DNA from: a virus
Taxonomy: Duplodnaviria > Caudoviricetes
Virus record (IMG/VR): IMGVR_UViG_3300038679_000032
Location: 516-64,515 of that record
DNA length: 64,000 nucleotides
Direction: 5' to 3' (one strand)
A program made the position numbers and the translations under genes. Below are positions 16,054 through 44,712 of the stretch, in pieces (within the stretch, counting starts at the first letter, position 1; the number at the start of each line of letters is the position of its first letter). The notes beneath the pieces were generated by a model, which did not search any database, had not been told where the DNA came from, and was given only the letters and a program-made list of their open reading frames with translations.

Positions 16054-16219
16054 CTCTCCCTCCCTGTTGAATTACTTTTCCTTCATGGACGATTCTTGCC
16101 GTGCGGCCCGATTCAACCAATGTCTCATAGTTGGCTTCCGCCCATTCATAGTTTTTGTGCTTACTGTAAAGAATCCATTCATTGTCTTTGATGTATTGAA
16201 CAAGATACATGAATCCTCC

Positions 16220-16939: not shown

Positions 16940-16948
16940 CCTAATTCC

Positions 16949-17164: not shown

Positions 17165-17193
17165 TTACCCCTCCTAACAGTCTACAGTATAGA

Positions 17194-27905: not shown

Positions 27906-28943
27906 TTACAAAACCACCCCCGCATATCCACGGAGAACCGCGTCGAGCCGTGCCATCTGGACGGCGGTGAGTTCTTCGGCAACGAGACACAAGACCGCCA
28001 TTTTCCCCTGTGCTGGATATTCTACCGCCCCGCCAGTTCCGAGGTGATATGGTCCGACAAGAGCCGCCTTGTTTTCCATAGCCACATACGATCCGTTGCT
28101 GGAATCCGTGTCATCCACAGCCACACCATTAAAGAAAAGGTTGATTGCATCCGCCGTCACCCCGGTCCCCTTGGAAAACCCGTATGTAACCCAAACTCCA
28201 CGATATGCGGTTAGTGCGGTGTCATAGATGCGCCCGATGTATGCTCCCGAAACACTATCGTCCCAACAGCGGAAATATAGTTTCTCTCCAGTTAAGTAAA
28301 AATTATATTCCCGGTTTGTTGATCCCGTAGTTGTGTCGTCCTTGGCGAGCAGATATTGCGTGGATGTATATGATGTGTTAAACAATACTATTGCCGAGAA
28401 CGCACTGTCCGCACTCCCGTTCCCGAATGTCAAATCCGCCGCATCGGGGGTGTTCCAGAGATGGGTGGCATCAAATGTCAGATACGGTGCAAGGCCGCTC
28501 ACTCCCGGCGTGCAGGTCGAGGCGTTGATGGCGTTTAGCGAGGCATCCCGTAGCGTCGTGACATGGGTAGTCACCCCGCCGATGGTGCTTCGCTCCGTGA
28601 TGGTGCTTACCGCCCCGGTCTGATCGAAAACGAGGAACAGGCGGATATTCGCCGGGGTGATAATGCCGTAAACTGCGTTTATCATCTGACCCTTGGCGTT
28701 TTCAAACACCCCTTGATGTGGTTGAAGCACCCATCTCTTGTTCCCCCCGTTGGCATCCGGGGCGATGATTCGTGGAGAAGATTCCGTAGCCGCAGAATCA
28801 TCATCGAGGATATAGGTGTATGTGTACCCCCCTACGGTGACATACGCCATGTCCTTGTCGGCAAGACCAGCCCCGTCTATTGCGTCCAATGCCCCGGTTC
28901 CGCCCCCGGTTAATGCTATTGCCGGATATACATATTTAGCCAT
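27906..28943 (-). CDS. Virion/receptor-binding protein with LamG-like C-terminal domain
   Basis: Gly-rich anchor; beta-sandwich pattern (FSAIVLF...YLLAK...W...FFNG). Confidence 0.6.
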   Translation of the reverse strand: MAKYVYPAIALTGGGTGALDAIDGAGLADKDMAYVTVGGYTYTYILDDDSAATESSPRIIAPDANGGNKRWVLQPHQGVFENAKGQMINAVYGIITPANIRLFLVFDQTGAVSTITERSTIGGVTTHVTTLRDASLNAINASTCTPGVSGLAPYLTFDATHLWNTPDAADLTFGNGSADSAFSAIVLFNTSYTSTQYLLAKDDTTTGSTNREYNFYLTGEKLYFRCWDDSVSGAYIGRIYDTALTAYRGVWVTYGFSKGTGVTADAINLFFNGVAVDDTDSSNGSYVAMENKAALVGPYHLGTGGAVEYPAQGKMAVLCLVAEELTAVQMARLDAVLRGYAGVVL

Positions 28944-29148
28944 GTTTCAACTCCTTTTCTCTGTAATACTTCAGTTTAAGGTGCATGCTCTTTGCCATCG
29001 CGGTTGCGATTCGGCACTTCAATTTAATATCTTCGTTATCGGTCAACTTGTAAATATCCCTTAAAGTCTGGCAAATGGAGTGATGCCCCTCATATCGGGT
29101 ATTCTCCATGACTTCTTCGCTTACCGGGGCCACTTTTTTATACGGCAT
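28936..29148 (-). CDS. Small protein with CxTxRDIY domain
   Basis: Paralogous to the C-half of 35615..36049. Confidence 0.65.
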   Translation of the reverse strand: MPYKKVAPVSEEVMENTRYEGHHSICQTLRDIYKLTDNEDIKLKCRIATAMAKSMHLKLKYYREKELKHG

Positions 29149-30088
29149 CGTTCAAGTACCATTCAATGTATTTGTCCAACCCGTCTTGGATCGTGTGCTT
29201 CGGGTCATACCCGAAACTCTCTTTGGCTTTAGTTATGTCTGCGTAAGTCATTGTCGCTTCCCCTTCCATTAAGGGGGCGTGCTTGATTACCGCGTCTTTT
29301 TTTAGGCGGTTCTCAAGGGCAAAGACAAGATCGCTCAGTAAGATCGCCTTCCCGGACCCCAAATTATAAATCTCATATCCGTGCTTTTTAGAAAGTATCT
29401 TCACAATCCCATCCACAACATCATCGACATAAGTAAAATCTCTTTTTACTTCATCCCCGCCGTGAACGGTCATTTCCGCCTTATGGTGAATCAGTCTTGT
29501 AAATAGAGGTATCGCCATATCCGTCCTCTGTCTTGGCCCGTACACCGTGAAGGGCCTGATACAAGCAATGTCCATTTTGTGAAGGTAGTGATAGGTATAG
29601 CAGATAAGTTCCCCAGCTTTCTTAGATGCGGCATAAGGGCAGAGGGGTTCCGTGACAACTTCCGTTTCCTTCCACGGGACATTGGGGTTGTTCCCGTACA
29701 CACTCGAAGAAGAAGCGAAGACGAATCTTTCGACTTCATTCCTCCTGCAAAACTCCAAGACATTCACGGTCCCGGTAATGTTCACATTGGAATGTAAGGC
29801 GGGGTTCTGGACTGATACTCTCACTCCGGCTTGGGCCGCAAGGTGAACCACCGCATCTATCCTCCAACACGAAAACGCCTTTTCAAGACTCATTGGTTCC
29901 GTGACGCTACCAGAAATCAGCTTGAAATTAGGGTTGGAGATGTTATGCTCGATGTTCTTCCACTTCAAAGCCGGGTTGTAGAGATTGTCGAATGAGTCAA
30001 AACAAATCACCCGTTCCCCGTCTTTCAGTAATCGGTCTATCAGGTGCGAGCCGATGAATCCGCAGCCACCTGGGATCAGTATTGTCAC
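29138..30088 (-). CDS. NAD-dependent nucleotide-sugar epimerase/dehydratase (UDP-glucuronate epimerase-like)
   Basis: GGCGFIG, ASSSSVYG, YAASK, FTVYGP. Confidence 0.93.
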   Translation of the reverse strand: MTILIPGGCGFIGSHLIDRLLKDGERVICFDSFDNLYNPALKWKNIEHNISNPNFKLISGSVTEPMSLEKAFSCWRIDAVVHLAAQAGVRVSVQNPALHSNVNITGTVNVLEFCRRNEVERFVFASSSSVYGNNPNVPWKETEVVTEPLCPYAASKKAGELICYTYHYLHKMDIACIRPFTVYGPRQRTDMAIPLFTRLIHHKAEMTVHGGDEVKRDFTYVDDVVDGIVKILSKKHGYEIYNLGSGKAILLSDLVFALENRLKKDAVIKHAPLMEGEATMTYADITKAKESFGYDPKHTIQDGLDKYIEWYLNDAV

Positions 30089-30453
30089 GATTCACTCCTC
30101 TTAAATTTATCGCAGTACCCGTTTACAAAATGTCCGTCTTCGTGCAAATCTAATCTACAACCACCCATATCAGAACCTATCTGCCACTGATAAAAATTAG
30201 CACAATCCTTGCAGTTTTCCTTATATGTGAGTTTCTTTAGGTATTTGACGGGTCTGCATTTACAAAATTCGCTAAAATCAGTAGAGGGCTCATAAGATTC
30301 ACTAAACCCCATATTGTGTGGAAGCACCATAAATCTTCTATAATTTGGGCGACGAATAACTGCTATCAATTTGCATTTTGAACACAACTCAATATACCCA
30401 TCCAGTTTCTCATACTTTTTTTTGTAATACGTCGCTAATTCAAGATTGTTCAC
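30085..30453 (-). CDS. Cys-rich hypothetical protein
   Basis: GTG start overlapping the upstream TGA; GGAGG SD; AT-rich. Confidence 0.55.
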   Translation of the reverse strand: MNNLELATYYKKKYEKLDGYIELCSKCKLIAVIRRPNYRRFMVLPHNMGFSESYEPSTDFSEFCKCRPVKYLKKLTYKENCKDCANFYQWQIGSDMGGCRLDLHEDGHFVNGYCDKFKRSES

Positions 30454-32789
30454 AGTTTCAAATCCTCCCATCCCGGCAATTTATTGACATGAGATTCAGT
30501 CCAGTTCTTACAGGGGTTCCTGAACTTGTCAGGACTCCACCTCGAAGATGTGAGGTTATACTTGTGGCGCACATCCAAGTTGGCAATCTTCGTTTCAAAG
30601 AAGTCGGACTTGTAATCATCGACCCTTTCCGGCCTTCCGTGGGTTCCCGGTTCAAACCCCATTCTCCGGGAGAACCCCACTTCCTCTACCTTCCTCACCC
30701 TTTCTCGATAGTGCTTCAGGAACAACTCCCTGTACGCTACGCATTGGGACACTTTTTTGCAGTCCCAGAAAACGGCATGGCCGTCCGCTTGCCTCACTTG
30801 CCAATTATTTTTATTGTAATAAAACCTGTCTTTACATAACGGTGTGAACTCAAAGTGTTCCGGGGTATAAAGAACATCGTGTTCGCACAGCCAGACGAGT
30901 TCCGTGTCTATCCGTTCAAGACCGGCGAGGATTTGCTTGAACATTGTCAGGTATCCTCGTTCAAGGTTCAGAACAACATTGTCTCCGAACTCAACCGGTT
31001 TAAGTGTGACGGAAACGATAGGGAGGCCCGTGTCGAGAAGTCGTTGCTGAACCATCCTACCCAATCGGTCCTCAATCCTGTTGTCGGAATAATATACAAT
31101 GCCCCGGTCACTATGGGCGGCGGATACAAATTGTCCATTGTCATTTCTCTGTCTTCCCTCCGCCGCAATGGACATTGTTTCGGAGATTTTATGCTTCGTT
31201 TCGTCTGAATGTTTTTTCCCAAGCATTCCGCGTGGGTGGCCCCTGTCGGCCCAGACTGCAATGCCTTGCATTTTTTCGCCATAAAGCCTCACCCTCTCAT
31301 CTGTTTCTTTTGTAAGATTTTTATTCCACGGTGTGTGTCCAATTTTTGAATTGCTTATTTTTTCCTTTATATCGTCAGTCCAAGGGATACCCTTATTCCA
31401 TGCTTCTTTGCCCTTATGAGACTCTCGCATCTTTTCAATAGATTCGGGGGAATGCTTTTTCCCATAAAACCCATTTCCCTCTCCGCTTTGTTGTTGACTC
31501 ATTTTTAGCAAGGAATCTTCAGTATGTTTTCTTCCGAGACTTGAACCAGCTACCGGGTTTATGTTGTACATATTGTCCCATCCGATGTTCTGCGAATATG
31601 TGTCTATAAATTGTTGCTCACAAGAGACAAGATCATTGGGTTTACAAAAAAATTCTATATCAAAAGTAAACGCTTCCTCACCATATTTGTTCCACGATTT
31701 CTGTAAATGATCGTTTTCGTGGTTTCCTTTGTGAAACATTTTTAGGTGCTCCCCAAACCTTCTTGATATGTCGATTGCTGATCCGACATACACCTTTCCG
31801 TTTTTTTTGTTTTTAATAGAATAAACTCCTGCTCGATCAACACGCATTTCATCTTGCAACAGTTTATCCAAATCCCCCTGTGACCACCCAGGGATGGGCC
31901 AAAATTGCTTTATTACCTTAGAAAGTGGATATATCTGTTGTTCCCACTTATTCTCGAAAAACAAATCCCTCGCATATTTTTTTGCACCCTGTATTTGTCT
32001 TCCTGATGCTGGCCAAGGGAACCCAAAATCCCCCCCCTTGGTGCGGAAAAGGTGTGCATACCAAGTGTTATGATTGCAAACAACCACTCCACCAGACAAG
32101 CGTGTTCGCAATGAAACTTCGATCCCCTGTGACCCCCAATTACCAAACTCCTCGTCGCACAGATTCAGTTCGTGATACTTCTCTCTCGTACACATGAAGA
32201 ATGAACCCTGCAAAGACATGGTTTCGGTGAGTTCCCCTTTTCCTTCGGGGCGGGACTTGAACTCCCTGAAGTATTGAAAGTGCGGTTCCGGGTCGAAGCA
32301 GTAAGAAGAACATTGGGGGTTCGCTTTACCAATCCACACAATGTCCTTGTGAAAGTCTGTTTTATTGTCGCACTTAGGACAGTCGGTTGGTCGGTTCCCC
32401 TGATACCTACGGTCCCCGCACTTAGAGCATACCCAGTCAAATACATGGAGGTTCCTCATTACGGGGACCATCGTGAAATTGTCCTGCATCTTGTCCATCA
32501 ACTTAACATCGAATCCTTCATCAAAAGCACAATGAGCGTCTGTTTTAACAAGATATTTTGACTTACTGATACGGGCGGCATAATTTGTTCCCGCCCTCTG
32601 GCCCACCGCTTCGGAGAAGTGTAGTAAGGTCACTTTGGGATTGTCTTTAATAGGCGGGTCCGGCCAGTACCCGTCTAATACAGCTATAATTTCCGTATTC
32701 CCTCTGATGTTTCTGAGAAGGTCTTCCACCGTATTAGACAGGAACTCCTCATTTCGTGCCGGGATTATCACGCTCAAATCATAGATCAT
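30450..32789 (-). CDS. GT2 glycosyltransferase - GIY-YIG endonuclease - second GT-like domain fusion
   Basis: SVIIPARNE and DAHC (GT-A); GVY...YVG plus NUMOD3-like repeats (aa ~315-555); GIVYY...EHDVLY domain. Confidence 0.88.
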   Translation of the reverse strand: MIYDLSVIIPARNEEFLSNTVEDLLRNIRGNTEIIAVLDGYWPDPPIKDNPKVTLLHFSEAVGQRAGTNYAARISKSKYLVKTDAHCAFDEGFDVKLMDKMQDNFTMVPVMRNLHVFDWVCSKCGDRRYQGNRPTDCPKCDNKTDFHKDIVWIGKANPQCSSYCFDPEPHFQYFREFKSRPEGKGELTETMSLQGSFFMCTREKYHELNLCDEEFGNWGSQGIEVSLRTRLSGGVVVCNHNTWYAHLFRTKGGDFGFPWPASGRQIQGAKKYARDLFFENKWEQQIYPLSKVIKQFWPIPGWSQGDLDKLLQDEMRVDRAGVYSIKNKKNGKVYVGSAIDISRRFGEHLKMFHKGNHENDHLQKSWNKYGEEAFTFDIEFFCKPNDLVSCEQQFIDTYSQNIGWDNMYNINPVAGSSLGRKHTEDSLLKMSQQQSGEGNGFYGKKHSPESIEKMRESHKGKEAWNKGIPWTDDIKEKISNSKIGHTPWNKNLTKETDERVRLYGEKMQGIAVWADRGHPRGMLGKKHSDETKHKISETMSIAAEGRQRNDNGQFVSAAHSDRGIVYYSDNRIEDRLGRMVQQRLLDTGLPIVSVTLKPVEFGDNVVLNLERGYLTMFKQILAGLERIDTELVWLCEHDVLYTPEHFEFTPLCKDRFYYNKNNWQVRQADGHAVFWDCKKVSQCVAYRELFLKHYRERVRKVEEVGFSRRMGFEPGTHGRPERVDDYKSDFFETKIANLDVRHKYNLTSSRWSPDKFRNPCKNWTESHVNKLPGWEDLKL
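31110..31850 (-). mobile_element. In-frame GIY-YIG homing endonuclease insert
   Basis: GVYSIKNKKNGKVYVGS, HL..SWNKYG, E...I, YN, repeated GKKHS/WNKG; AT-richer than the flanks. Confidence 0.85.
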
Positions 32790-33508
32790 GCAATATCCTT
32801 CTCATAGCTTAATTTGTGGAACAGCCCCATCGGGTTCGTGTTTCCGTTTATGTTGTATCTTCCTACCGGGAATATGTAAATCTTAGGCCCGACAACAGCC
32901 TTAATGTGGTTCTCTACCGCATACCGATTGAACCTCTGATTGAAGTAACAGTCTTCCCCTCTTTTGGGGTCTGCATGATACCCATACTGACAATACCTTG
33001 CGTTATACCCGCCGAGCTTCCAGAACAGGTCTTTCTTCATGGCCCATGTATTCCCGTGGACGGAAGCATAGGTTCCCCTCACCGAAAGTCTTTTCTCATC
33101 GAACCCGTATGCCTTCAGTATCCCAAGGTCATGTCTCAACCTTCCCCTGATGTCCAAGACGGCTATGTGCCGTGGGAACACCATCTTCTCCCCGGTGAAG
33201 TTATAGACTGTTTCAAGGGCTTCCTTGGAAATGATGTGGTCGATATCGGTCATAAACAGATACTCGCCTTTGGCGTGCTTGGCCCCCATGTTTCGTGCGA
33301 GTCCCTGTGTCCATTTACGGGTGTCGTGGGTTTCCAGAATTGTAAGATTTTTGAGGTAGTTTTTCTTGCTTTTCAGAGGCGGGTCGGAACCGTCGTCAAC
33401 TAAGATAAACTCAATATCATCAGGAAGATTGAGACTCCTGAAATATCTTATCTGCCTTTTGACGGCCCCGTGAGAGTCAAGAACCGGGATGACGACGGAA
33501 ATCTTCAT
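32786..33508 (-). CDS. GT2 glycosyltransferase
   Basis: ISVVIP, VDDGS, ARNMG, TDID, GED. Confidence 0.9.
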   Translation of the reverse strand: MKISVVIPVLDSHGAVKRQIRYFRSLNLPDDIEFILVDDGSDPPLKSKKNYLKNLTILETHDTRKWTQGLARNMGAKHAKGEYLFMTDIDHIISKEALETVYNFTGEKMVFPRHIAVLDIRGRLRHDLGILKAYGFDEKRLSVRGTYASVHGNTWAMKKDLFWKLGGYNARYCQYGYHADPKRGEDCYFNQRFNRYAVENHIKAVVGPKIYIFPVGRYNINGNTNPMGLFHKLSYEKDIA

Positions 33509-33717
33509 CGAGTAGTCCTATTAAAATACTGTTACGTTGTATCGTAAGGTTCATCGCTGCCGCAACACGGGCAGCGCCATAAAACTCATTCACATCCTTT
33601 CTCTAACATTTCTTCTCCTTTATACCCGCACTCAGGACACTCAACTTCTACTTTTACCCATTCAATCTCAGCATAAAAAGCATCAATCTGTTCTAGTTCT
33701 TTTTTGTTTAACATTAT

Positions 33718-34833
33718 TTACCCCCTCGCTTTAGTCTGGAAATCTTCATTAAACCACCTGTCAATCAATTCACAAATATAATTTGTTTCTTGTTCTGTCA
33801 CCCACCATCCGCACGGAATACAGACATGAAACTCATCGAACCAGTCCACCCCCGGAAGGGGGGTCTTACTGTCCCTGAAGATAGTCTTTGTGTCGTTCCT
33901 GTCGTGGACTCTTGAACACTCTACCCCGTTTAACTTCATGTATTGGATGAACCTGTCCGGTTCTTCTATGATAACGGTATAAAGCCAATAAGAGGATTTC
34001 CTGTGGGCCAGTTCCGACAGTCCAAAACACTTATTCAACCTTTGTGCATTAAGGCGGCTCTTTTCAATCCGTTGTTCAAGTCCTCTTGAATTAGCCAGAC
34101 CTATAGAGGCAAGGACATCGTTCATCTGCCACTTGTATCCCACAACAGGGGGGTCTTGATTGCACCGCATATCGGCACCCTTATCTCTATCCAGCCCGAA
34201 CCATCTCATCATTCGGGCATCTTCGCATTGACTCTTTGCCCACATCTGGTGCCCGTTGATGCAGAGAAATCCCCCATCTACTGTCGTCAAATGCTTTATA
34301 GCCTGAGTTGAAAACGCAACATAGGTCGCCTGATTGCCCACCTTGACACCTTTATACTCAGCACCAATGGCTTGACAGGCATCCTCTATTAAAGGCACTC
34401 CATACTTCACGGACAGGGCCATGAGTTCATCCAACATGCACGGCTTCCCGCCCCAATCCATGCACATCATAGCTTTTACTTTTTGCTTGGAAAGAATCTT
34501 CCCTACTTCTCTGGGGTCTATCGTTCCATCCATCATAATGTCCGCCCATACCGGAGTGGCCCCGACATTTAAGATGGAAGTATTCGAGGCCAAACAGGTC
34601 ATTGGAGTGGAAAGCACCTTATCCCCCGGCCCCACCCCGGCGAGTTTCAACGCTAAGGTAATCGCGGAAGTGCCGGAGTTCACGATGACGCAGTTATGGT
34701 TCCCGATATATTCCCCGAACCATTTTTCCAATTCTCTTGACTTCGGCCCCTCTCCAATATATCCCGAATGAAGCACCGGGAGGATGAAGTCGGAAACATC
34801 AGGAGCCATATAAACTTTGAATAATGGGATCAC
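33718..34833 (-). CDS. DegT/DnrJ/EryC1/StrS PLP sugar aminotransferase
   Basis: NSGTSA, IEDACQA, FSTQAIKHLTTVDGG. Confidence 0.93.
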   Translation of the reverse strand: MIPLFKVYMAPDVSDFILPVLHSGYIGEGPKSRELEKWFGEYIGNHNCVIVNSGTSAITLALKLAGVGPGDKVLSTPMTCLASNTSILNVGATPVWADIMMDGTIDPREVGKILSKQKVKAMMCMDWGGKPCMLDELMALSVKYGVPLIEDACQAIGAEYKGVKVGNQATYVAFSTQAIKHLTTVDGGFLCINGHQMWAKSQCEDARMMRWFGLDRDKGADMRCNQDPPVVGYKWQMNDVLASIGLANSRGLEQRIEKSRLNAQRLNKCFGLSELAHRKSSYWLYTVIIEEPDRFIQYMKLNGVECSRVHDRNDTKTIFRDSKTPLPGVDWFDEFHVCIPCGWWVTEQETNYICELIDRWFNEDFQTKARG

Positions 34834-35654: not shown

Positions 35655-36049
35655 TCTTCCCTTGAATCATGCCCCACCGGATACCCGGCTTCGGTAAGCA
35701 TCTCCTTGTAGTCTGATAATGCGGAATACATATTCTTCGCCATCCTCACCGCCATCCGTGCCCACAACTTGATTTCCGGGTCTTCCGTCCTCATGTATAT
35801 GTCCCGTATCGTGGAACACAAATTATCCCGTCCAAAATACTTCGGCAATTCCATTCGACTCTCTGGGAATGGGATGATGATTCTCTTGTCCGTCCCTTCC
35901 GTGAACACATACTCACCCCTCTGTCTTTCCAGAACAGTCAAATGCTCCCCGGTAAAGACCTTTTCGGGTATCCCGTGAGGGAAGGCGAAACAGTAATTCC
36001 TCCCCCTCCTGATACCCCTGTAATGCTTGCAGACTAAACACTTTTCCAA
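35615..36049 (-). CDS. Two-domain protein: Cys-rich AFPxGIP domain plus CxTxRDIY domain
   Basis: CLVCKH...CFAFPHGIP; CSTIRDIY...MAKNM. Confidence 0.65.
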   Translation of the reverse strand: MEKCLVCKHYRGIRRGRNYCFAFPHGIPEKVFTGEHLTVLERQRGEYVFTEGTDKRIIIPFPESRMELPKYFGRDNLCSTIRDIYMRTEDPEIKLWARMAVRMAKNMYSALSDYKEMLTEAGYPVGHDSREDWQLRKRSLKVNR

Positions 36050-36642
36050 TGCTTCACCAAAATGTATTCCGGCTCAATGGCCCTTGTAATGTAAAAGGCT
36101 CTGAGATTGTTCGCCAAAGTGTACGCATCAACGGCTTTTACGACCCCCGTTTCAAACAGATTGCAGTATCCCCTACCTGTAATCAATCCTCCCTGCTTCA
36201 CCCTTCTCCCCCATTCAATGAGGTCCATCGAAACAGCATTGAAGTCCCTCTGTGAATCAATGTAAACAAAGTCAAGCGAATTGTCCTCAAACTGTTTCGC
36301 CGCTACGAGGCTCTTGAATCTTTTGAATTGCGCCCTCTCCCCGTATTTATCAAGCCTCCTGTGGGCGTCTATGCAATGCTCCCCCGCTTTCGGGCCGTCC
36401 CAAGCATCCACAAGATGAAGCGTCAAGTCCGGGTTCGCAGATAACATCATGTCTGAAAACACCCCGCGATCCACCCCTATTTCCGCACCCACCTTGAACT
36501 TCAGGTCGGCAAACAGTTCCGCAAGAAGTTTCCTCCCCGTATTCGGGTCGCCCAAGTTGTGCCTTCCGGTCCCGATCCAGCACAGAATCGGCGGTTCCGC
36601 CACCCTCTGCACCCCCATCTTCTTCCTGATTATATCTTCCAT
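36034..36642 (-). CDS. Class I SAM methyltransferase (Methyltransf_24-like)
   Basis: GAEIGV..G, VDAW, LDFVYID. Confidence 0.85.
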   Translation of the reverse strand: MEDIIRKKMGVQRVAEPPILCWIGTGRHNLGDPNTGRKLLAELFADLKFKVGAEIGVDRGVFSDMMLSANPDLTLHLVDAWDGPKAGEHCIDAHRRLDKYGERAQFKRFKSLVAAKQFEDNSLDFVYIDSQRDFNAVSMDLIEWGRRVKQGGLITGRGYCNLFETGVVKAVDAYTLANNLRAFYITRAIEPEYILVKHWKSV

Positions 36643-36643
36643 T

Positions 36644-37240
36644 TCACCCCTCCTTAACAAACCACCAGGTATGTTCCTTCTCCCTTGTTATGTACCATTG
36701 CTTGATATTGTTCGCCATCGTGTAGGCATCAACGGCCCTCACTACACCCCCTTGAAAAAAATTGTAATAATCATGCCCCGATACAATCCCGCCTACCTTA
36801 ACTTTTGGGGTCCATGCAATTATATCCTCAAGGACAAAGGGATAGTCGTGACGCCCGTCTATGTATATGAAATCCAAAGAGTTATCCTCAAAATCCTTCA
36901 CGGCATCCATGCTCATTTTCTTGATTAAGACGGCGTCTTTGTCTTTGAGTTTCCTCACGCACCTTTGATAATAGACTTCCTGTGAATGGTCCGTTACCCT
37001 CAGATACGCCCCCCACGGGTCTATACAGTAGAGTTTCAGGTTCGGGACACGGGCGAAAATAGCTGAAGCGTTTGTTCCCATTCTTACCCCTATTTCCGCC
37101 CCGACGGTAAATCCCAACTCCCCCCACAGTTCATACAGGGTTTCTCTGGTAGAGTTCCACCACCCCTCAAAGGGCAGATTGTCCCCCGGATGAACATGGA
37201 ACTTCTTCCAGATGGCCCGTGTCGTATCTCTTGGTTTCAT
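36644..37240 (-). CDS. Class I SAM methyltransferase (Methyltransf_24-like)
   Basis: GAEIGV..G, IDPW, LDFIYIDGRH, GGIVSGHDY. Confidence 0.9.
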   Translation of the reverse strand: MKPRDTTRAIWKKFHVHPGDNLPFEGWWNSTRETLYELWGELGFTVGAEIGVRMGTNASAIFARVPNLKLYCIDPWGAYLRVTDHSQEVYYQRCVRKLKDKDAVLIKKMSMDAVKDFEDNSLDFIYIDGRHDYPFVLEDIIAWTPKVKVGGIVSGHDYYNFFQGGVVRAVDAYTMANNIKQWYITREKEHTWWFVKEG

Positions 37241-37875
37241 TTAACCCTCCTCAAATATCCTTTTGGATTCCATGTGATGAAAAAGTTTTCCTTTGTCCGG
37301 TCTATTTCGTATTCAGGATGTTCCTGAATAAAGGTTTCAATCGCCTCATAAGGGCCGGGTTCCGGTCCCGCACTCACCCCATGCCTTGAATTACTATCCT
37401 CTACAATGAAGTAATCCCCCACGGAAACCATCGGAGAATAAGTGTTTAGAACATTCAATGTGTTCTCGTAAGTATGGGAACTGTCCTCGATGACCATGAC
37501 TCTTTTCCCCTGAATCATATTGCTTACAAGGTGTGCGGGTTCCGCACAGGCATCCCCTTCAAGGAAGAAGATACGGGGGTGCAAAAGTGCCATTTCATGG
37601 ACACGTTTCAATGAGGAGTCTATACTATAGACTATTCCATGCCCCATCAAATCACAAATATGGGCCAGAGCCAAACTCGACCCGCCCTGTCCACACCCGA
37701 TTTCAACAATGACATCCGGCTCCCTCTCCACGATGATTTCCCGGTATGTCCAGAAGTCCATCGGGGATTTGGAACAATGAATCCCAAAGTAAGTCGTGTT
37801 CCTCACGATTCTCTTTTGCATTATATTTAATACATATTTCAATCTCAGATTGAGATTGTCTTCCATATAGGTCAT
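37237..37875 (-). CDS. CmcI-family (rhamnosyl O-)methyltransferase
   Basis: K.P.D.W.Y.EII...PD.IVEIG..GGS; DSSH; YFIVED. Confidence 0.88.
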   Translation of the reverse strand: MTYMEDNLNLRLKYVLNIMQKRIVRNTTYFGIHCSKSPMDFWTYREIIVEREPDVIVEIGCGQGGSSLALAHICDLMGHGIVYSIDSSLKRVHEMALLHPRIFFLEGDACAEPAHLVSNMIQGKRVMVIEDSSHTYENTLNVLNTYSPMVSVGDYFIVEDSNSRHGVSAGPEPGPYEAIETFIQEHPEYEIDRTKENFFITWNPKGYLRRVK

Positions 37876-38825
37876 TCTTTACCCCATAACTCATTGTAAA
37901 GGTCACGATGCTTCCAATTATTAAAATAGTAATCGTATTGATTTTCCCATCCTTCCGGCCATCCGTCTAACGGCTGAAACTTGTCTATGAGCCACTTCAG
38001 GGGTCTTGTCTGTTTGGGCCATTTATTGTTCATCCAGTAGTCTACATTATAGACTTCGCTCATTATCTTGTGTCTTTTGGAAAGGTGCCAATCCCCTTCC
38101 TTCCATGTTTTCCCTTTGTGGAGGTGGGCATACCAACACGCCTTATTGATAATAACCCTCCCCCCCTCCATGAGCCATGTCTTGAAATCAAGCTCTATGG
38201 CTTCATCATACATGATGTAGTGGTTGTCCTCGTCAAGCCCTTCAATGTATTCCCAATGGGAACGGGTCATAAAGTAGCACGATCCCTGAAAGATCATCAA
38301 ATCGTCTATCTTGGGGCGTCGTTTATGAGTTTCCGGCCACCAGTAAGAACCGACCAATCCCTGAGGCCCATGCCACTTCGTCCCGTGGAACCCGGTTCCG
38401 AACAAATCATGGCAGTCAAACGGGAAGGTGAGATACATATAATTTATCGGCCCACGAGTCCTCTCCCATTTCACCGGGTCCAGGGAATATCTCGATGGAA
38501 TGGAAATCCAATGCTCCCCCGCATGGTGCTTTTTCAGGGCGACATCCCATCCCGGCATGAGGGCGCAATGGTCATCCAGCTTCATAATGTATTTGCCTTT
38601 GGATAACTTGACCCCCCTATTGATGGAGTCACGCATACCCAAAGGCTGTCCTTTATGGACTATGGTGAGGTTTGGATTGTCTTTCGGGAGGGGGGATGGC
38701 CACCAGTCGTCAAGCATCATAATGACTTCTACCGGCCCATGCGCGTTTGCGAAGATGTCATCCACCGTTTTAGAGGCGAATTGACAAGTTCTGCTCGGAA
38801 TTATCACGGAGACTTCGGGTGTCAT
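37872..38825 (-). CDS. GT2 glycosyltransferase
   Basis: VSVIIPSR, KLDDHC; paralogous to the N-domain of 30450..32789. Confidence 0.88.
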   Translation of the reverse strand: MTPEVSVIIPSRTCQFASKTVDDIFANAHGPVEVIMMLDDWWPSPLPKDNPNLTIVHKGQPLGMRDSINRGVKLSKGKYIMKLDDHCALMPGWDVALKKHHAGEHWISIPSRYSLDPVKWERTRGPINYMYLTFPFDCHDLFGTGFHGTKWHGPQGLVGSYWWPETHKRRPKIDDLMIFQGSCYFMTRSHWEYIEGLDEDNHYIMYDEAIELDFKTWLMEGGRVIINKACWYAHLHKGKTWKEGDWHLSKRHKIMSEVYNVDYWMNNKWPKQTRPLKWLIDKFQPLDGWPEGWENQYDYYFNNWKHRDLYNELWGKE

Positions 38826-38880
38826 GCCGTTTTCCTTTCAGACATTATAACGATTACCCCCTTGTAATGCAAGAAATTTT

Positions 38881-41800
38881 TTATGTTTTTGTTGTCGCAA
38901 CCTGCACCGCACCCATCAAGGGCTGGTCAACTACTTGAATACTTGTAGCAATCGGGGCGGCGACTAATTCAACATCTTCAACTATCGGACCCGCAACTCT
39001 TAAAATATCCTGAACGGTTGGATAAGCTACCCGGGTGATTTCCTTTACTGACGGAACCGTAGCGGATACCGGGCCAATTTCCGGGTGCGCTACCAGGCTG
39101 ATATTAGAGGGACGCGGGTAGGCGATCCTGCTTACACCGGAAGGTTTAATGTGAATCCACGGCGTAGGTGAAGGGGACGGGGACTCACTTGGGCTCTCCG
39201 AGGGGGAACCGGAAGGGCTTTTAGACGGAGAAGCCGATGCACTTGGGCTCAGACTTGGAGAGGCTGAGGGGCTCAGGCTGGGGCTCTGGCTTGGTGAACC
39301 ACTCGGGCTTGCACTCGGGGACAGAGACGGACTCTGCGTCGGTGAGGCCGAGGGGCTCGCGGAGGGGGACAGGCTCGGACTCTCACTCGGGCTGGCAGAG
39401 GGGCTCAGGCTCGGTGATTCGCTTGGACTCGCGGATGCCGAAGGACTTAGGCTTGGGCTTTCGCTTGGGCTAAGGCTCGGGGACTGGCTTGGCGATTCTG
39501 ATGGTGAGGCCGAAGGGCTCTCACTCGGGCTTTCGCTTGGCGAAACCGAGGGACTCTCCGAAGGACTCGCAGAAGGAGAGAGGCTCGGTGACTCACTCGG
39601 GGAAGCCGAGGGGCTTTCCGATGGCGACTCGGAAGCAGACGGTGAAAGACTCGGGGACTCCGATGGACTTTCCGAAGGGCTTGGGGTTCCCGCCGCCGAG
39701 GGGCTTTCACTCGGACTCTCGCTTGGTGATTCGGACGGACTTTCCGAATGGCTCTGACTCGGGCTTTCGGAAGGGCTTTCCGAGGGGCTAAGGCTTGGGC
39801 TCTCCGAGGGCGATTCCGAGGGCGACTCGCTTGGGCTCAAGCTCGGACTTTCAGAAGGGGATTCTGACGCACTTGGGCTGAGTGAGGGGGACTCACTCGG
39901 GCTTTCTGATGGACTCAGCGACGGCGATTCGGAAGGCGATTCACTTGGGCTCTCGCTCGGTGATTCACTTGGACTTGCCGAAGGACTCTCTGATGGGCTC
40001 TCAGAGGGGCTTTCGGAAGCGGACGGACTTAGACTCGGGCTTTCGCTCGGAGACTCGCTGGGGCTTAATGAAGGGCTTTCAGAAGGTGATTCTGAAGGCG
40101 ACAGACTCGGACTCTCTGACGGCGAAGCTGAAGGTGATGGACTGAACCCTGCCGAAGGTGACGGTGAAGGACTTTCACTCGGGGATTCGCTTGCACTCGG
40201 GGAGAGGCTCGGACTTTCCGACGGCGACTCCGAGGGAGATTCAGAAGGGGAAAGACTGAGGCTTTCCGATGGTGAGGCGCTCGGGCTCTCCGAAGGTGAT
40301 TCAGAAGGGCTTGCCGAGGGCGAAACACTTGGGCTCTCCGAAGGGCTTTCCGAAGCCGAAGGACTTAGGCTTGGACTTTCGGAAGGGCTCTCGCTGGGAG
40401 ATTCTGATGGGCTCTCCGAAGGGCTTTCCGAGGGAGACTCAGAAGGGCTTAATGAAGGCGACTCCGAAGGACTCTCTGACGGTGATTCGCTTGGACTTTC
40501 CGAGGGGCTCAGGCTCGGACTTTCGCTTGGAGAGGCCGAAGGACTTAGGCTTGGACTCTCTGAGGGGCTTGCAGACGGCGATTCAGAGGCCGAAGGGGAA
40601 AGGCTTGGCGACTCACTCGGACTCTCGGAAGGACTTGCTGAAGGGCTAACAGAAGGTGATTCTGAGGGGCTTTCAGACGCAATCTCCCCTATTCTCAGGA
40701 CAACATCTTCGACATACTGCACCGTTGCAGATGAAGGAGATGGGGAGGGTGATTCACTCGGACTCTCCGAAGGGGACTCCGAGGGGCTTTCACTTGGACT
40801 TTCTGAGGCCGAAGGAGAAACACTTGGCGATGCAGAGGGACTCTCCGAGGGGCTCTCGGACGCACTTTCCGAGGGCGATTCCGAGGCACTTTCCGAAGGG
40901 GATTCCGAGGGCGACTCCGAAGGGCTTTCGCTTGCCGACGGAGAAACGGACGGGCTCTCGCTTGGACTCTCCGACGGACTTTCACTCGGGGATTCGCTTG
41001 CACTCGGGCTCTGGCTTGGGCTTTCAGAGGGGCTCTCGGATGGCGAAGCACTCGGACTTAACGAAGGGCTTTCGCTGGGGCTCTCCGAGAAACTCGCACT
41101 TGGAGACGCAGAAGGTGATGCGCTTGGGGATGCCGAGGCCGAAGGGGAAAGGCTCGGCGACTCACTCGGACTTTCTGAAGGCGACGCTGAGGGGCTAGCG
41201 GAAGGTGAGGCACTTGGACTTGCCGAAGCACTTTCCGACGCTCCAGGCTGTTTGAATGCCGCAACAATCATTACCGAGTTTGAATCGGTTTGGGCAAGCG
41301 CAGAGAAGGTTCCGGTGGTTCCTGAATTGACCTTAATTGCGTCTGCTATGAATAACCCGACATCCGCCCCGGTATTACTTCCTTCGTCTTGCCGTTCCTG
41401 CCATGTATTGTTAGCCGGTTCCGTAGTGGGGGCAACAGTTCCGTTTGAAGCCACGCTTGGTGCCGTTGCCGCATCCATCGTTGTTGTTGTGGAGTTGTCC
41501 CCGTGGGCAATCATCGCCACAAGGAGTTCATTTGCACCAGCGGTGCTTATCGCTGTCCCGGTGGGTTCAGTTACGGACCCGGCTTGGGTGGTCGAACTCG
41601 TATCATAGGGGGTGGATGTGTTCCCACGATAGGTAACTGTTCGGCCCATCGCAACATCGCCAGCGGTCCGGGTAAAGACATAACTTGGGGGACTTGCACC
41701 CCTGATGCAATACCACATCCCCCCGGAAGCGACACCATTACTTGAATCCGTATCCCCGGCGTAGAGTTGCCCGATCTGAGTCCATTCCGCAGAAGGCTTG

Positions 41801-41937
41801 GTAATCTGAGTGTTGGACCGGAACGCAATACAAGCAACAATCAAATCACCCGTAGTGGTCCCCGTAGGCTCAGCAAGGGTGATGTTGCCGCCATCCTGTA
41901 TGACCTGCGTTCCTAATGCTATGATTTCCCAAGCCAT
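38881..41937 (-). CDS. Virion fibre-like protein with very long Ser-Pro repeat
   Basis: ~230 aa beta-rich N-domain, ~690 aa (SPSX)n, C-terminal 11-aa repeats. Confidence 0.8.
39165..41240 (-). repeat. (Ser-Pro-Ser-X)n coding repeat, block 1
   Basis: Translation; short unique interruption near 40680-40735. Confidence 0.95.
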
Positions 41938-43208
41938 TACAGGGTTGACTCCACTTTAATCTGCACGAACCCTAAAGAATTAAACGGGTTTGCATACAGG
42001 TTCCAATCCGCCGCTTCACACGCAACCCTTGTCGCCCCGTGTCTATAGTATAGACTCACCGCATCCCCCGCCCGATACACATTCATCAGTAAGGTGACAG
42101 ACCCCAATCCGGTTTCGCACACTTCAGAGGTCATGTCCTCACCCGCTTCAAGGGCCAATCGTTCCTCATCCCCGGAGTTCTGAATCTCCCCGGTCCCCGT
42201 CCAATGGTCCTGAAATGGGAATATGTTTTCCTCCAAGACATCCGTAACATGGCCCCAACACACCTCCCCCACAGGGGCAGACGGTGAGGCACTCGGACTC
42301 TCGGAAGGACTCGCGCTGGGAGAAGCGGAAGGGCTGGCACTTGGACTCGCAGAAGGAGAAGCCGAGGGTGATAAAGAAGGACTCTCACTTGGGCTGGCCG
42401 AAGGGGAAAGACTCGGACTGGCCGAAGGGCTTTCCGAAGGGGAGGCACTTGGCGACGCACTTGGACTTGCCGACGCACTTGGGGACAGACTCGGGCTTTC
42501 GCTTGGACTCTCTGATGGCGACGCCGAAGGACTTAACGAAGGAGAAGCACTTGGGCTTGCCGAAGCCGAAGGTGAAAGACTCGGACTCTCCGAGGGACTT
42601 TCCGAGGGGCTTGCGGAAGGCGACGCTGAAGGACTTGCACTTGGGGACGCACTCGCCGAGGGGCTAAGACTTGGGCTTTCCGAAGGACTTTCTGATGGAC
42701 TCTGGCTCGGTGAAGCACTTGGGGAAGCCGAAGGGCTAAGGCTCGGACTTGCTGACGGCGACTCAGAAGGGGAAGCGGACGCTGAAGGACTTAGACTCGG
42801 TGACTCACTCGGAGATTCTGAAGGGCTCGCACTTGGGCTGAGGGACGGGGAAGCACTCGGGCTGGCCGATGGCGACGCAGACGGAGATGCCGAAGGAGAG
42901 GCAGAGGGGGAAGCTGACGGGCTCGCAGACGCAGAAGGACTTAGACTCGGACTTTCAGACGGGCTCTCGCTGGGACTAAGGCTCGGTGACGCGCTGGGCG
43001 AAGCGGAAGGAGATGCGCTGGGGCTTGCCGAGGGGGAAGCCGACGGTGAGGCTGAAGGTGACGCCGACGGGGACGCACTTGGGCTTGCGCTCGGTGAGGC
43101 TGAAGCACTCGGGCTGAGAGAAGGGCTACCGCCGTATTCCTGATACCATTGGACATCGGCACGGTCTAACCAATCTACATCAGCAGTTGAACGCCATTGA
43201 ACATCCAT
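41937..43208 (-). CDS. Ser-Pro repeat virion protein
   Basis: Short N-terminus, ~280 aa repeat, ~115 aa beta-rich C-domain. Confidence 0.8.
42280..43128 (-). repeat. (Ser-Pro-Ser-X)n coding repeat, block 2
   Basis: Translation. Confidence 0.95.
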
Positions 43209-43275
43209 CGTCGTCCTATAAAAATGGGGGCCGTAGGAATAAGACCCCCATTCTTCATTCCGGGGCCATCACCCC

Positions 43276-43620
43276 TTAACTCGTCACTTGCTGAACAATC
43301 GTCACCGTGCCTTCCAGTAGCCGTGTCACGGTCCCGCCAAGCTCCGTCAATTCGCAATCCCAATACCCGGACCAGTAAGTGAATGTTTCCGTGACAGCGG
43401 CGGCCATTGTCAAGGTGATTACCGAGGTGGTCGTGTCTATCGCGGCGGTGAAATCTATCGAGGAAGTGGAATCCTTCGTTTCCCTCACGGAAGCGGCACA
43501 GGAAGCCCCGGTAAGGTCATAGAGTTCACCATCCTCATCCACGACGGTGAACTCTATCCCAAAATCCGCCCCTTCTTCGATCCGGTAATCCTTTTTCAAA
43601 TTAAGTGTGGTTGCAGGCAT
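43276..43620 (-). CDS. Small Ig-like tail protein (BppU-N-like)
   Basis: IEEGADF...YDLTG...W..Y.D.EL...LLEG.V. Confidence 0.6.
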   Translation of the reverse strand: MPATTLNLKKDYRIEEGADFGIEFTVVDEDGELYDLTGASCAASVRETKDSTSSIDFTAAIDTTTSVITLTMAAAVTETFTYWSGYWDCELTELGGTVTRLLEGTVTIVQQVTS

Positions 43621-43629
43621 TCTATCCTC

Positions 43630-44712
43630 CTAATAGGGATTCTCACTCGGAGACTCCGAAGGCGACACAGAAGGTGACGCAGAGGGCGAAGCCGAGGCAC
43701 TCGGAGACAGGCTCGGAGAAGGACTCGGGGAACCAGACGGCGATTCGCTCGGGCTGGCACTCGGAGAATTGCTCGGGCTACGCGACGGAGAAGCAGAAGG
43801 AGACTCAGAGGGCGAAGCGGAAGCACTCTCACTTGGGCTACTCGACGGAGATGCCGACGGAGACTCGCTTGGGGATGCAGAAGCCGACGGGCTAAGACTC
43901 GGTGACTCAGAAGGTGACTCAGAAGGGGAGGCCGAAGGCGACTCGCTCGGGCTGGCACTCGGGGACTCAGAGGGTGAGGCCGAGGCACTTGGGCTAAGGC
44001 TTGGGCTTTCCGACGGGGACTCAGAGGGAGAAGGACTTGGAGATTCCGACGGGGAAGCGGAAGCCGAGGGGCTAAGGCTCGGAGATTCGGATGGACTCGC
44101 CGAGGCCGACGGACTGAGCGACGGTGATTCAGACGGAGAGGCAGAAGCCGAAGGTGAAGTAGAGGGCGAAGCCGATGGCGATTCGCTCGGTGAAGCCGAA
44201 GGCGACAGGCTCGGGCTGAGTGACGGTGAAGCACTTGGAGACTCGCTCGGGCTGAGTGACGGTGAAGCAGAGGGCGACAGACTCGGTGAGGCCGAGGGGC
44301 TGAGTGACGGAGAAGCACTCGGGGAAGCACTTGGACTCTCCGAAGGCGACGGCACCGCGACACCAGAAATCAGGCTGTCGTGCAGTATGATAATCTTGTC
44401 TGCCGCCGATACCGAAGCAGAGAACCCGGGGCTTACCGTAAAGGTTCCTGTCGAAGAAGTGTAATCCACAATCTGCCTTATCTGCCGTTCCGGGACATTC
44501 CCGTGAACGGAAGCATTGAGCAAGACCTGTAGGTAATACTTCCCCTTTCCTGCTACGGTGCTTGAGAAGTAGTCATCTCCATATCCGGCCAAGGAAGCGA
44601 CTGTAATCGCCGTCGTGCTGTCTGACGAATTGGTGCATGTCCCTACATACGCCAGACCGTCGTGGCCGAATCCTACGACCGGGACGATGTTACTGAAATT
44701 GAAATTACTCAT
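43630..44712 (-). CDS. Ser-Pro repeat virion protein
   Basis: ~120 aa beta-rich N-domain followed by repeat to the C-terminus. Confidence 0.8.
   Translation of the reverse strand: MSNFNFSNIVPVVGFGHDGLAYVGTCTNSSDSTTAITVASLAGYGDDYFSSTVAGKGKYYLQVLLNASVHGNVPERQIRQIVDYTSSTGTFTVSPGFSASVSAADKIIILHDSLISGVAVPSPSESPSASPSASPSLSPSASPSLSPSASPSLSPSESPSASPSLSPSLSPSASPSESPSASPSTSPSASASPSESPSLSPSASASPSESPSLSPSASASPSESPSPSPSESPSESPSLSPSASASPSESPSASPSESPSASPSESPSESPSLSPSASASPSESPSASPSSSPSESASASPSESPSASPSRSPSNSPSASPSESPSGSPSPSPSLSPSASASPSASPSVSPSESPSENPY
43640..44352 (-). repeat. (Ser-Pro-Ser-X)n coding repeat, block 3
   Basis: Translation. Confidence 0.95.

Follow-up and report, generated by a model that had tools for sequence, protein, structure and literature searches.

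We propose that an uncultured tailed phage most likely glycosylates its own fibres, because GT27-like glycosyltransferases adjoin its serine-tract proteins, a combination that we meet again in numerous uncultured phages of dissimilar kinds. The window that we analyzed (64,000 nucleotides) represents the complete 64.5-kb phage genome, which is of groundwater origin. Its late operon holds proteins with (Ser-Pro-Ser-X)n tracts, hereafter (SPSX)n, followed by 10 kb of genes for soluble sugar enzymes. Judged by homology, the phage appears to encode relatives of the enzymes that initiate mucin glycans in animals. We consider phage-encoded, cytoplasmic, stepwise mucin-type O-glycosylation of its own virion serine tracts to be the best reading of these genes, and a probable one.

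Virion proteins with serine-proline tracts

Five particle proteins, all encoded on the minus strand, together hold ~1,500 residues of Ser-Pro-Ser-X repeats. The three main ones, P0001 to P0003, account for ~1,270 repeat residues, about half of them Ser. P0001 (38881..41937; 1018 aa) consists of a 230-aa N-domain, a tract of ~720 aa (39106-41262), and then a 90-aa C-domain. P0002 (41937..43208; 423 aa) has a short N-terminus, a tract of ~300 aa (42249-43151), and a conserved 95-aa C-domain. P0003 (43630..44712; 360 aa), which has a homologue in locus L017, carries a 120-aa N-domain before a C-terminal tail of ~250 aa (43633-44388). Two further tracts were overlooked in the sequence-only reading that preceded this work. 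One of ~205 aa (~51615-52235) is internal to P0009, a large tail-region protein (50994..54380; 1128 aa). The other, of ~45 to 60 aa (~57066-57251), lies in the virion protein P0010 (56214..57467) between an N-domain and ~7 propeller-like repeats. The minus strand also encodes an LtfC-like/tail-fibre-assembly-like beta-sandwich protein (43276..43620; phrog_1084) with a 55% identical homologue in L002.

The three main repeat genes, which that reading had already described, are real. Their reading frame is right, since it runs from the tracts into globular terminal domains for which homologues exist in other loci: In L002, a free-standing protein of 250 aa shares 64% identity with the P0001 N-domain, and the P0002 C-domain is common to L010, L012, and L016. 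The tract DNA, far from being a simple repeat, uses all six Ser codons and all four Pro codons, contains no 18-mer present more than three times, and gives short, weak arrays only with Tandem Repeats Finder. Such scrambling of codons fits selection at the peptide level. Furthermore, positions 38550-44800 are covered by contigs of an independent coal-metagenome run, with zero differences.

Glycosyltransferases resembling polypeptide GalNAc-transferases

Pfam Glycos_transf_2 matches three island genes, at 37872-38825 (GT2a), at 32786-33508 (GT2c), and at the N-terminus of 30450-32789 (GT2b). The domains of GT2a and GT2b are members of a large unannotated family. Among solved structures, its nearest relatives in both sequence profile and predicted fold are the polypeptide GalNAc-transferases (GT27). 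Searched against the PDB, a profile built from seven family sequences ranked 15 polypeptide GalNAc-transferases first (E 8e-13 to 6e-8), with a match over ~255 of 291 positions, including 'lDaHC' versus 'LDSHC' and the Gal/GalNAc-T motif. Among 64 family sequences, D84 and H234 of GT2a (minus strand; 317 aa; GT-A type) are invariant, and H86 is present in at least 90%. These residues correspond to Asp209/His211/His344, the metal triad of GalNAc-T1 (PMC4202792), and align with DSH and VGH in PGANT9. The AlphaFold model of GT2a is a single domain (pLDDT 93), and all Foldseek matches of this model in the PDB, among those listed to rank 48, were GalNAc-transferases. VIA Z was 25.4 for GalNAc-T1 and 24.7 for TgGalNAc-T3, and every other GT-A cluster reached at most 18.4. 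Identity to GT27 is only 14 to 18%.

GT2b (779 aa; minus strand) combines three parts. Its N-domain (31854..32789) is the second of the GT27-like domains and contains an inserted zinc ribbon (CxxC...CxxC). Its C-domain (30450..31115; 220 aa) has a GT-A fold and an invariant E-x-D, is assigned to no family, and also occurs stand-alone and in multiple copies in other cassettes. A GIY-YIG/NUMOD3 homing endonuclease (31116..31853), likewise overlooked before, sits in-frame in the linker between them and is absent from ~50 orthologues.

A GT-A fold alone leaves the acceptor unfixed. We propose GT2a as the initiating enzyme. The two GT27-like domains may transfer GalNAc from UDP-GalNAc onto polypeptide Ser/Thr; support for this is indirect and comes from their pairing with tracts and from a 4-epimerase-like enzyme in the island. 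GalNAc-transferase action is favored by Pro at positions -3, -1, +1, and +3 (PMC4245494). By direct reading of the sequence, every Ser of (SPSX)n has Pro at two of these four positions, and the spacing thus matches the preference of the enzyme family nearest to GT2a. Counting against this reading, animal GalNAc-transferases favor Thr, and the phage tracts are nearly pure Ser; the low identity to GT27 and the missing lectin domain count against it as well. GT27 enzymes are known to modify Ser/Thr within mucin repeats rich in Pro. The GT27-like identity, together with the pairing, therefore lends support to the central proposal of the sequence-only reading, that soluble phage glycosyltransferases may act stepwise, within the cytoplasm, on virion-protein Ser-Pro tracts.

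A sugar-enzyme island in the late structural operon

The island, which shares an operon with the capsid and tail genes, is placed between fibre-like genes and a lysozyme gene, and all genes listed for it are on the minus strand, with boundaries as given. Downstream it is bounded by the lysozyme gene (27152-27592) and by the gene for a 345-aa protein without a family match (27906..28943; minus strand), which, judging by its sequence, we take to be structural and fibre-like. This flank, too, was overlooked in the sequence-only reading. Besides the three GT2-domain genes, Pfam bears out the epimerase, the DegT aminotransferase, and the three methyltransferases named in the sequence-only reading. 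The first methyltransferase belongs to the SAM-dependent CmcI/rhamnosyl O-methyltransferase family (37237..37875; RMNT_CmcI, E 3e-39) and is an accessory, fused to a GT27-like domain in other phages. The others match Methyltransf_24: MT24a (36644..37240), the most constant cassette neighbor of GT2a, and MT24b (36034..36660). The DegT_DnrJ_EryC1 PLP aminotransferase (33718..34833; E 3e-62) has the sugar 4-aminotransferases AtmS13, CalS13, and ArnB as nearest solved relatives. An extended-SDR, NDP-sugar 4-epimerase-like enzyme (29138..30088; Epimerase/GDP_Man_Dehyd, E 1e-59) has an 'SSSSVYG' motif, lacks the dehydratase Asp-Glu pair, and is closest among solved structures to UDP-GlcA and UDP-Glc(NAc) 4-epimerases. 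Among cassettes, the DegT and CmcI genes are variable accessories.

GT2c (32786..33508) is an ordinary GT2-family GT-A glycosyltransferase that we propose as an elongating enzyme. A 'GT4-like' gene, also named earlier, was not confirmed. It must be the conserved cassette protein P0006 (34830..35654), which has no Pfam or NCBIfam match, and no gene of the island matches Glycos_transf_1 or Glyco_trans_4 in Pfam. P0006 was placed by a language-model look-alike search only, near viral 'glycosyl transferase family 1' and bacterial PF13524 clusters, and we therefore treat it as a lead: It is possibly a GT-B, family-1-like glycosyltransferase. The remaining genes encode P0007 (35615..36049), with a Cys-rich N-part and a domain homologous to a small, conserved 70-aa protein (28936..29148) with which many cassettes end, and the Cys-rich P0008 (30085..30471; 128 aa).

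No membrane segment was found by hydropathy in any island or tract protein, which fits the cytoplasmic pathway suggested earlier. Neither SecA2/SecY2 (accessory Sec) genes nor membrane proteins were found in 27900-58000. An alternative, which we consider unlikely, is that the island is an auxiliary sugar cluster with which the infecting phage alters a surface polymer of its host (LPS, capsule, teichoic acid, or S-layer glycan). The tracts would then be unmodified flexible linkers that travel with it only since each is useful to phages infecting one set of uncultured hosts. Source records do label the GT27-like family 'glycosyltransferase involved in cell wall biosynthesis', and polysaccharide clusters typically have DegT, SDR, and methyltransferase genes. 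However, the island encodes neither a membrane protein of any kind nor a flippase, polymerase, ligase, or priming transferase, its location is the late structural operon, and its lead enzymes are nearest to the peptide-acting GT27 by a margin of 6 to 7 Z units.

The glycosyltransferases could also hypermodify phage DNA bases with sugars; phage enzymes that act on DNA in this way are well known and diverse (PMC12619734). This would leave the Ser-tract pairing, the structural-operon position, and the GT27-like fold unexplained, and no hydroxymethylase-type gene was seen in the region near the island. We regard it as highly improbable.

Recurrent pairing of enzymes and tracts

Glycosylation of the tracts is favored by their distribution across other loci. 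The GT27-like family is present in at least 484 viral contigs, and 59 of the 80 best loci encode an alternating-Ser tract protein (at least 60 aa) within 10 kb. In all 59, tract and glycosyltransferase share a strand, and many of the tracts stop at the glycosyltransferase start codon. As a control, we used 70 loci seeded on the CmcI methyltransferase and chosen blind to both the glycosyltransferase family and the tract. Ten had both, two the glycosyltransferase only, one the tract only, and 57 neither (Fisher P = 1.8e-9; 8e-8 after dereplication); since related contigs are not phylogenetically independent, these P values overstate the number of independent events. The co-occurrence that the sequence-only reading had proposed to check is thus strong and nonrandom. 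Patterns such as 'SPSESPSE' occur in at most 185 to 203 stretches among 2.9 million contigs but in 14 of the 80 loci. Conversely, tract-seeded loci with sufficient flank (L011, L015, L016, L018/L238, and L240) all contain the family. The syntenic relative L002 is a natural double negative: Its homologue of the P0001 N-domain is tract-less, and there is no island between its fibre and lysis genes. Counting against the reading, gene-rank adjacency within loci exceeds random placement only modestly (24 observed versus 16 expected, P = 0.017).

By their nonrepeat parts, 111 tract proteins fall into 64 groups with dissimilar scaffolds, which suggests that the tract may have been gained independently and repeatedly. 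The tract is a free C-terminal tail in 71 of the 111, and in three loci, a capsid gene directly precedes the tract-protein gene. We found no published account of a GT27-like enzyme/Ser-tract pairing in phages.

The pairing has exceptions. Two of the control loci, which represent one phage, carry the enzyme but lack a tract in 13 kb, and nine glycosyltransferase-bearing records, 25 to 78% complete, have no tract anywhere in them. Conversely, the family is missing from a 273-kb record that encodes alternating Ser/Thr-type tracts. In genome-binned contigs (mostly Patescibacteria MAGs), the cassette is often multiplied, and a tract occurs within 10 kb in only 16 of 75 loci; thus, the family may have other acceptors. 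These contigs, in which the cassette lies among cellular-looking genes, give some weight to host-polymer remodeling. Against it, the link between enzyme and tract is physical, with co-oriented and often abutting genes, and holds where a locus and the window have no other detectable genes in common, and the two-by-two control speaks against a loose ecological correlation.

A further possibility is that the enzymes glycosylate virion proteins elsewhere, for example, at capsid or tail-tube termini, and that the tracts are not acceptors, or not the main ones. The glycosyltransferase-bearing loci without tracts would fit this, as would mycobacteriophage glycans, which, as summarized in PMC12619734, are on the C-termini of capsid and tail-tube subunits. 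Yet no other locus feature follows the enzyme family nearly as well as the tract, the Pro context of the tract serines is one that the nearest enzyme family prefers, and no alternative conserved acceptor motif was noticed, albeit outside any systematic survey. We judge this quite improbable.

A proposed pathway and its relation to known systems

Under the reading that we prefer, tract glycosylation, the phage would produce, late in infection, no fewer than five structural proteins that contain long (SPSX)n tracts. GT2a and the N-domain of GT2b, both soluble, would add the first sugar to tract serines using an Mn-dependent Asp-x-His...His site. The glycan would then be extended by the GT-A C-domain of GT2b, GT2c, and perhaps P0006. 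The epimerase-like enzyme and the DegT aminotransferase would supply unusual donor sugars, and the three SAM methyltransferases would modify the sugars; going by domain content, the sugar may be aminated and O-methylated, as the sequence-only reading had it. The products may be stiff, hydrated bottle-brush stalks and tails on tail, and possibly head, proteins. Of this picture, the genes and their order, the homology and fold of the family, its conserved metal triad, the solubility of the proteins, and the statistical pairing with tracts are observed; the acceptor, the donors, the sequence of steps, and the biological use are proposed from them.

GT27 enzymes (mouse GalNAc-T1, 8v9q/1xhb; human T2, 2ffu; Toxoplasma GalNAc-T3, 8ujf) are the best profile and fold match by a clear margin. 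They share the GT-A domain, the Asp-x-His...His triad, and the Gal/GalNAc-T motif, and the phage enzymes are paired with long Ser/Pro-rich tandem repeats as GT27 is with mucins. Unlike GT27, GT2a has no C-terminal ricin-type lectin domain (Pfam and AlphaFold model) and no type II membrane anchor (maximum 19-residue hydropathy 0.83). The phage enzymes are soluble and predicted to be cytoplasmic, with no secretory pathway; their proposed acceptors are not Thr-rich; and the family is found in phages as well as in contigs of bacterial and archaeal genome bins.

Mycobacteriophages (Che8 and others; Freeman et al. 2023, as described in papers that cite it) similarly have glycosyltransferases in or near structural genes, sometimes with methyltransferases. 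Those enzymes are reported to act in the cytoplasm on virion proteins of the phage itself, and their glycans occupy short segments at the C-termini of capsid and tail-tube subunits rather than repeats hundreds of residues long. A tblastn search with 37872-38825 against 50,697 deposited phage genomes, mycobacteriophages included, gave no match at E 0.01.

In the serine-rich repeat adhesins of streptococci and staphylococci, alternate-Ser stretches of hundreds of residues are glycosylated stepwise in the cytoplasm by soluble enzymes encoded alongside (GtfA/GtfB plus Gtf3, dGT1, and GalT). There, too, genes for long alternating-Ser repeat proteins adjoin soluble glycosyltransferase genes. However, the adhesin initiator is the GT4 GT-B pair GtfA/GtfB, and here we propose a GT27-like GT-A enzyme; the phage island also lacks an accessory Sec system, and its tracts have Pro at every fourth to sixth position.

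Giant viruses provide virus-encoded, host-independent glycosylation machinery, such as chlorovirus A064R and the mimivirus fibril cluster with its DegT-type aminotransferase. They are eukaryotic viruses that use other glycosyltransferase families and have no (SPSX)n acceptors, and chlorovirus glycans are N-linked and atypical. Their likeness to the phage lies in amino or methylated sugars and in glycosyltransferase-methyltransferase fusions; among relatives of the phage cassette, we found fusions of the GT27-like domain to both CmcI and Methyltransf_24.

Gene order in the phage genome

The source record is 64,515 bp long and 100% complete (CheckV), and the window covers positions 516-64515 of it. 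It encodes a tailed phage, with a large terminase (phrog_675, E = 4e-101), a portal/adaptor, and a major capsid protein (phrog_267, E = 4e-49) that is 44% identical to its counterpart in Rhizobium phage RHph_TM3_14A, all on the minus strand. The capsid gene is followed by a minus-strand run of tail-like genes from 59126 down to 44709; the portal lies at the start of the window and the capsid at its end because the genome is permuted. No tRNA genes were found in the window. The window DNA is present in a groundwater metagenome, its possible source, and a coal metagenome from a separate study contains almost all of it; no RNA data set was listed as containing it. Its closest matches among binned genomes are short contigs from metagenome-assembled genomes with mixed labels.

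After the tail-like genes come, on the same strand, three repeat proteins (43630-44712, 41937-43208, and 38881-41937, the last termed P0001), the first two separated by an LtfC-like gene. The first enzyme after them is a GT2 protein, GT2a (37872-38825). Downstream lie a CmcI-type and then two Methyltransf_24 methyltransferases, a 144-aa Cys-rich protein, a 274-aa protein, a DegT aminotransferase, a second GT2 enzyme (GT2c, 32786-33508), a 779-aa GT2-containing protein (GT2b, 30450-32789), and a 128-aa Cys-rich protein. The island ends, still on the minus strand, with an epimerase-like SDR enzyme and a 70-aa protein (28936-29148), beyond which are a 345-aa gene without a family match and a lysozyme. 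Every island and repeat gene listed by the sequence-only reading was found at the boundaries given there. The gene it had called GT4-like must be that of the 274-aa protein, which is family-1-like at best. No membrane segments were predicted in any island protein.

Serine-proline tracts of the virion proteins

The three (SPSX)n proteins noticed earlier are real: their tracts span ~720, ~300, and ~250 residues, are about half Ser, and have chiefly E, A, or L at X. Two additional tracts, 12 to 18 kb away from the island, occur in virion proteins at 50994-54380 (internal, ~205 residues) and 56214-57467 (~45-60 residues), which brings the total over five virion proteins to ~1,500 residues. An assembly or wrong-frame artefact is ruled out: the tracts are joined to globular domains with homologues in other loci, every Ser and Pro codon is used and repeated 18-mers are almost absent, they are scarcely detectable as tandem repeats at the DNA level, and an independent sequencing run gave the identical assembly. 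Such scrambling of codons beneath a perfect peptide repeat fits selection acting on the peptide. A 421-base 'skip' joint within the P0001 tract, with only 29 letters on one side, is probably repeat noise.

Outside the repeats, the domains of the tract proteins in the window had no match in PHROGs or Pfam. Downstream of its short tract, the protein at 56214-57467 (-) carries about seven 'IDYITIATTGNAxDFGDL'-type repeats, a pattern that suggests a beta-propeller.

Across loci, 111 tract proteins could be sorted into 64 groups on the sequence outside the repeats; in 71 of the proteins the tract forms a free C-terminal tail. The tract therefore resembles a portable module, one that looks to have been gained many times by different virion proteins in enzyme-bearing genomes. 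At three loci (L053:7164-9252, L044, and L088), a tract protein of ~300 aa, from a single one of these groups, stands directly after the major capsid gene and before the GT27-like gene, which points to a capsid decoration protein whose tail is Ser-rich.

A phage family resembling polypeptide GalNAc-transferases

GT2a and the N-terminal domain of GT2b share 31% identity and form one family with homologues from other loci (alignments A1 and A2). The best PDB matches of the family profile were 15 polypeptide GalNAc-transferases (GalNAc-Ts; CAZy family GT27, the initiators of mucin O-glycosylation), with nearly the whole domain covered, including the Asp-x-His and Gal/GalNAc-T motifs; the remaining GT2 enzymes were matched over the first ~90 residues only. 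GalNAc-T1 has three Mn-binding residues (PMC4202792). Their equivalents in GT2a are D84, H86, and H234, invariant or nearly so in the family. The AlphaFold model of GT2a (pLDDT 93.2) retrieved only GalNAc-Ts among the Foldseek PDB matches listed, to rank 48. Against representative structures, it scored Z = 25.4 with GalNAc-T1 and 24.7 with Toxoplasma GalNAc-T3, versus at most 18.4 with other GT-A enzymes. Sequence identity to GT27 is only 14 to 18%. Neither a lectin domain nor a membrane anchor was found in the GT27-like enzymes; because these are missing, the phage family is not GT27 in the full sense.

The family has at least 484 relatives in IMG/VR and at least 998 proteins at E ≤ 1e-20 in a large protein collection, all generically named, as are its matches in a viral structure library. 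None of 50,697 deposited phage genomes gave a tblastn match to 37872-38825. The GT2b subfamily (31845-32789 (-) and orthologues) contains a CxxC...CxxC zinc-ribbon insert with a weak RCKP-type rubredoxin match, which the GT2a subfamily lacks. Fusions of the GT27-like domain to a CmcI-type or Methyltransf_24 methyltransferase, as a single polypeptide of 470 to 530 aa, occur in other phages (L011:4254-5663, L200, L203, and L212-L217; proteins P0076 and P0085) and physically link the transferase to the methylation step.

Pairing of the enzyme family with serine tracts

We examined the best 80 viral loci of the at least 484 relatives (67 clusters at 90% identity). Recurrent among them is a core cassette of a GT27-like protein, a Methyltransf_24 methyltransferase, and a GT27-like/GT-A protein of two domains, frequently joined by the 70-aa protein; SDR, DegT, CmcI, GT2c, and the 274-aa protein are accessory and vary between loci. 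A tract of at least 60 residues lies within 10 kb in 59 of the 80 loci by an alternating-Ser rule and in 52 by a Ser/Pro/Thr rule. These tracts are on the enzyme strand in every case, and many end at the enzyme's start codon. No genes other than those of the island and the tracts are detectably common to the window and the 80 loci. The octamer of the E-type repeat has at most ~200 matching stretches in the entire collection, yet it was found in 14 of the 80.

The control set consisted of 70 viral loci retrieved with the CmcI methyltransferase as seed (a TerL-seeded scan gave one locus). The GT27-like family was present in 12 of these, 10 with a tract, and absent in 58, one of which had a tract, weak and 74 residues long. 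Fisher's test gave p = 1.8e-9, or 8e-8 without duplicates and previously seen contigs, values inflated by kinship among contigs. Co-occurrence of Ser-Pro tracts and glycosyltransferase islands, the check proposed with the sequence-only reading, was thus borne out on viral loci. In the reverse direction, all tract-seeded loci with sufficient flank carried the family; these loci are few because repeat-seeded scans passed only 4 to 8, the confirmation step discounting low-complexity matches. In the syntenic relative L002, the N-terminal domain of P0001 is a stand-alone protein without a tract, and the fibre-to-lysis interval has no island.

Enzyme-tract adjacency inside loci is only modestly above chance, and some enzyme-bearing fragments are tract-free. 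Among genome-binned contigs, only 16 of 75 loci had a nearby tract. The bins are mostly Patescibacteria, with 'Gammaproteobacteria', Anaerolineales, and some archaea, and some loci sit amid cellular-looking genes. The family may have additional acceptors, or acceptors encoded at a distance.

In Patescibacteria bins (Woesebacteria, Saccharibacteria, Paceibacterota, and WWE3; L098-L172, e.g., L146, L136, and L164), the cassette is often multicopy. Some of these contigs are 120 to 450 kb long with cellular-looking neighbours, such as FtsE/FtsX-like genes, and Patescibacteria-binned contigs also encode giant tract proteins (1,100 to 1,700 aa) with a P0001-like N terminus and no signal peptide. A jumbo phage record (L188; 273 kb, 97% complete) has many alternating Ser/Thr-type codon tracts and no GT27-like family; its tracts may be paired with another glycosyltransferase family.

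A proposed route to glycosylated virion tracts

On our best reading of these sequences, the tract serines would be O-glycosylated stepwise in the cytoplasm. GT27-like domains would initiate on tract serines, the other transferases of the island would extend the glycan, the methyltransferases would cap it, and the epimerase-like SDR and DegT would supply donors. We infer acceptor, donors, step order, and purpose alike; candidate purposes are stiffening, shielding from proteases or adsorption, and host-glycan binding. GalNAc-T action is favoured by Pro at -3, -1, +1, and +3 (PMC4245494). The SPSX lattice places Pro at two of these positions for each Ser, an arrangement that fits the preference of the nearest enzyme family. 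Fully extended, the 720-residue tract would reach roughly 200 nm, estimated from ~0.3 nm per residue.

The proposed phage system falls within virus-encoded virion glycosylation as a general class. Phage virion glycosylation is known from a few mycobacteriophages, to whose enzymes the present family has no homology, and mucin-type O-glycosylation is regarded as a eukaryotic trait. By analogy, the working principle would be like that of mucin-type O-glycosylation and of serine-rich-repeat adhesin glycosylation. Animal GalNAc-Ts prefer Thr, whereas the phage tracts are almost pure Ser. We found no paper on GT27-like enzymes in phages or on their pairing with Ser repeats.

One large, generically annotated family joins phage virion glycosylation and mucin-type O-glycosylation, with GT27-like enzymes tied to mucin-like Ser tracts on particles. 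It is possible, if on balance somewhat doubtful, that mucin-type O-glycosylation has a true counterpart among prokaryotes, present in tailed phages whose hosts are uncultured subsurface organisms and perhaps in Patescibacteria themselves. A lectin-less sister family of eukaryotic GT27 would then glycosylate (Ser-X)n densely, giving virions mucin-like bottle-brush fibres of up to ~200 nm with methylated or amino-sugar caps, and GT27 would not be an invention of eukaryotes but would share ancestry with this phage and bacterial family. If the proposed chemistry is true, it would account for the low-complexity stretches that recur in phage proteins from metagenomes. Bacterial production of O-glycosylated repeat proteins would gain a set of enzymes that are small, soluble, and free of lectin domains. 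The finding would also have consequences for how GT27 originated, and it would suggest that phages of groundwater-type communities commonly adapt by means of a glycan coat.

Other island proteins and mobile elements

Assignments for the remaining island proteins are less secure than for the GT27-like domains. The C-terminal domain of GT2b, 220 residues long, has a distinct GT-A fold outside assigned families, in which an E-x-D is invariant. PDB sequence searches with this domain, with the 274-aa protein (34830-35654), and with one Methyltransf_24 methyltransferase (36644-37240) returned no match. The SDR is closer to UDP-sugar 4-epimerases than to 4,6-dehydratases. Its top PDB entry is named dTDP-glucose 4,6-dehydratase, an identity we rejected: the SDR sequence has 'SSSSVYG' in place of the Asp-Glu pair of the dehydratases, and the next matches are all 4-epimerases. 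DegT is similar to sugar 4-aminotransferases. The helical domain of ~60 residues at 28936-29148, without a known family, is kept at many cassette ends, and a copy lies inside the 144-aa protein (35615-36049, residues 60-120).

Within GT2b, a GIY-YIG/NUMOD3 homing endonuclease (TIGR01453, 120 bits; 31116-31853 (-)) is in frame, stop-free, and inserted exactly at the linker between the two glycosyltransferase domains. About 50 GT2b orthologues are 500 to 600 aa long and endonuclease-free. No group I intron was detected around it (Rfam, E up to 1); the gene may therefore be a three-part fusion or use an internal start at Met315. In the relative L002, the portal gene (14760-17714) has a long, intein-like insertion with a homing-endonuclease-like middle part.
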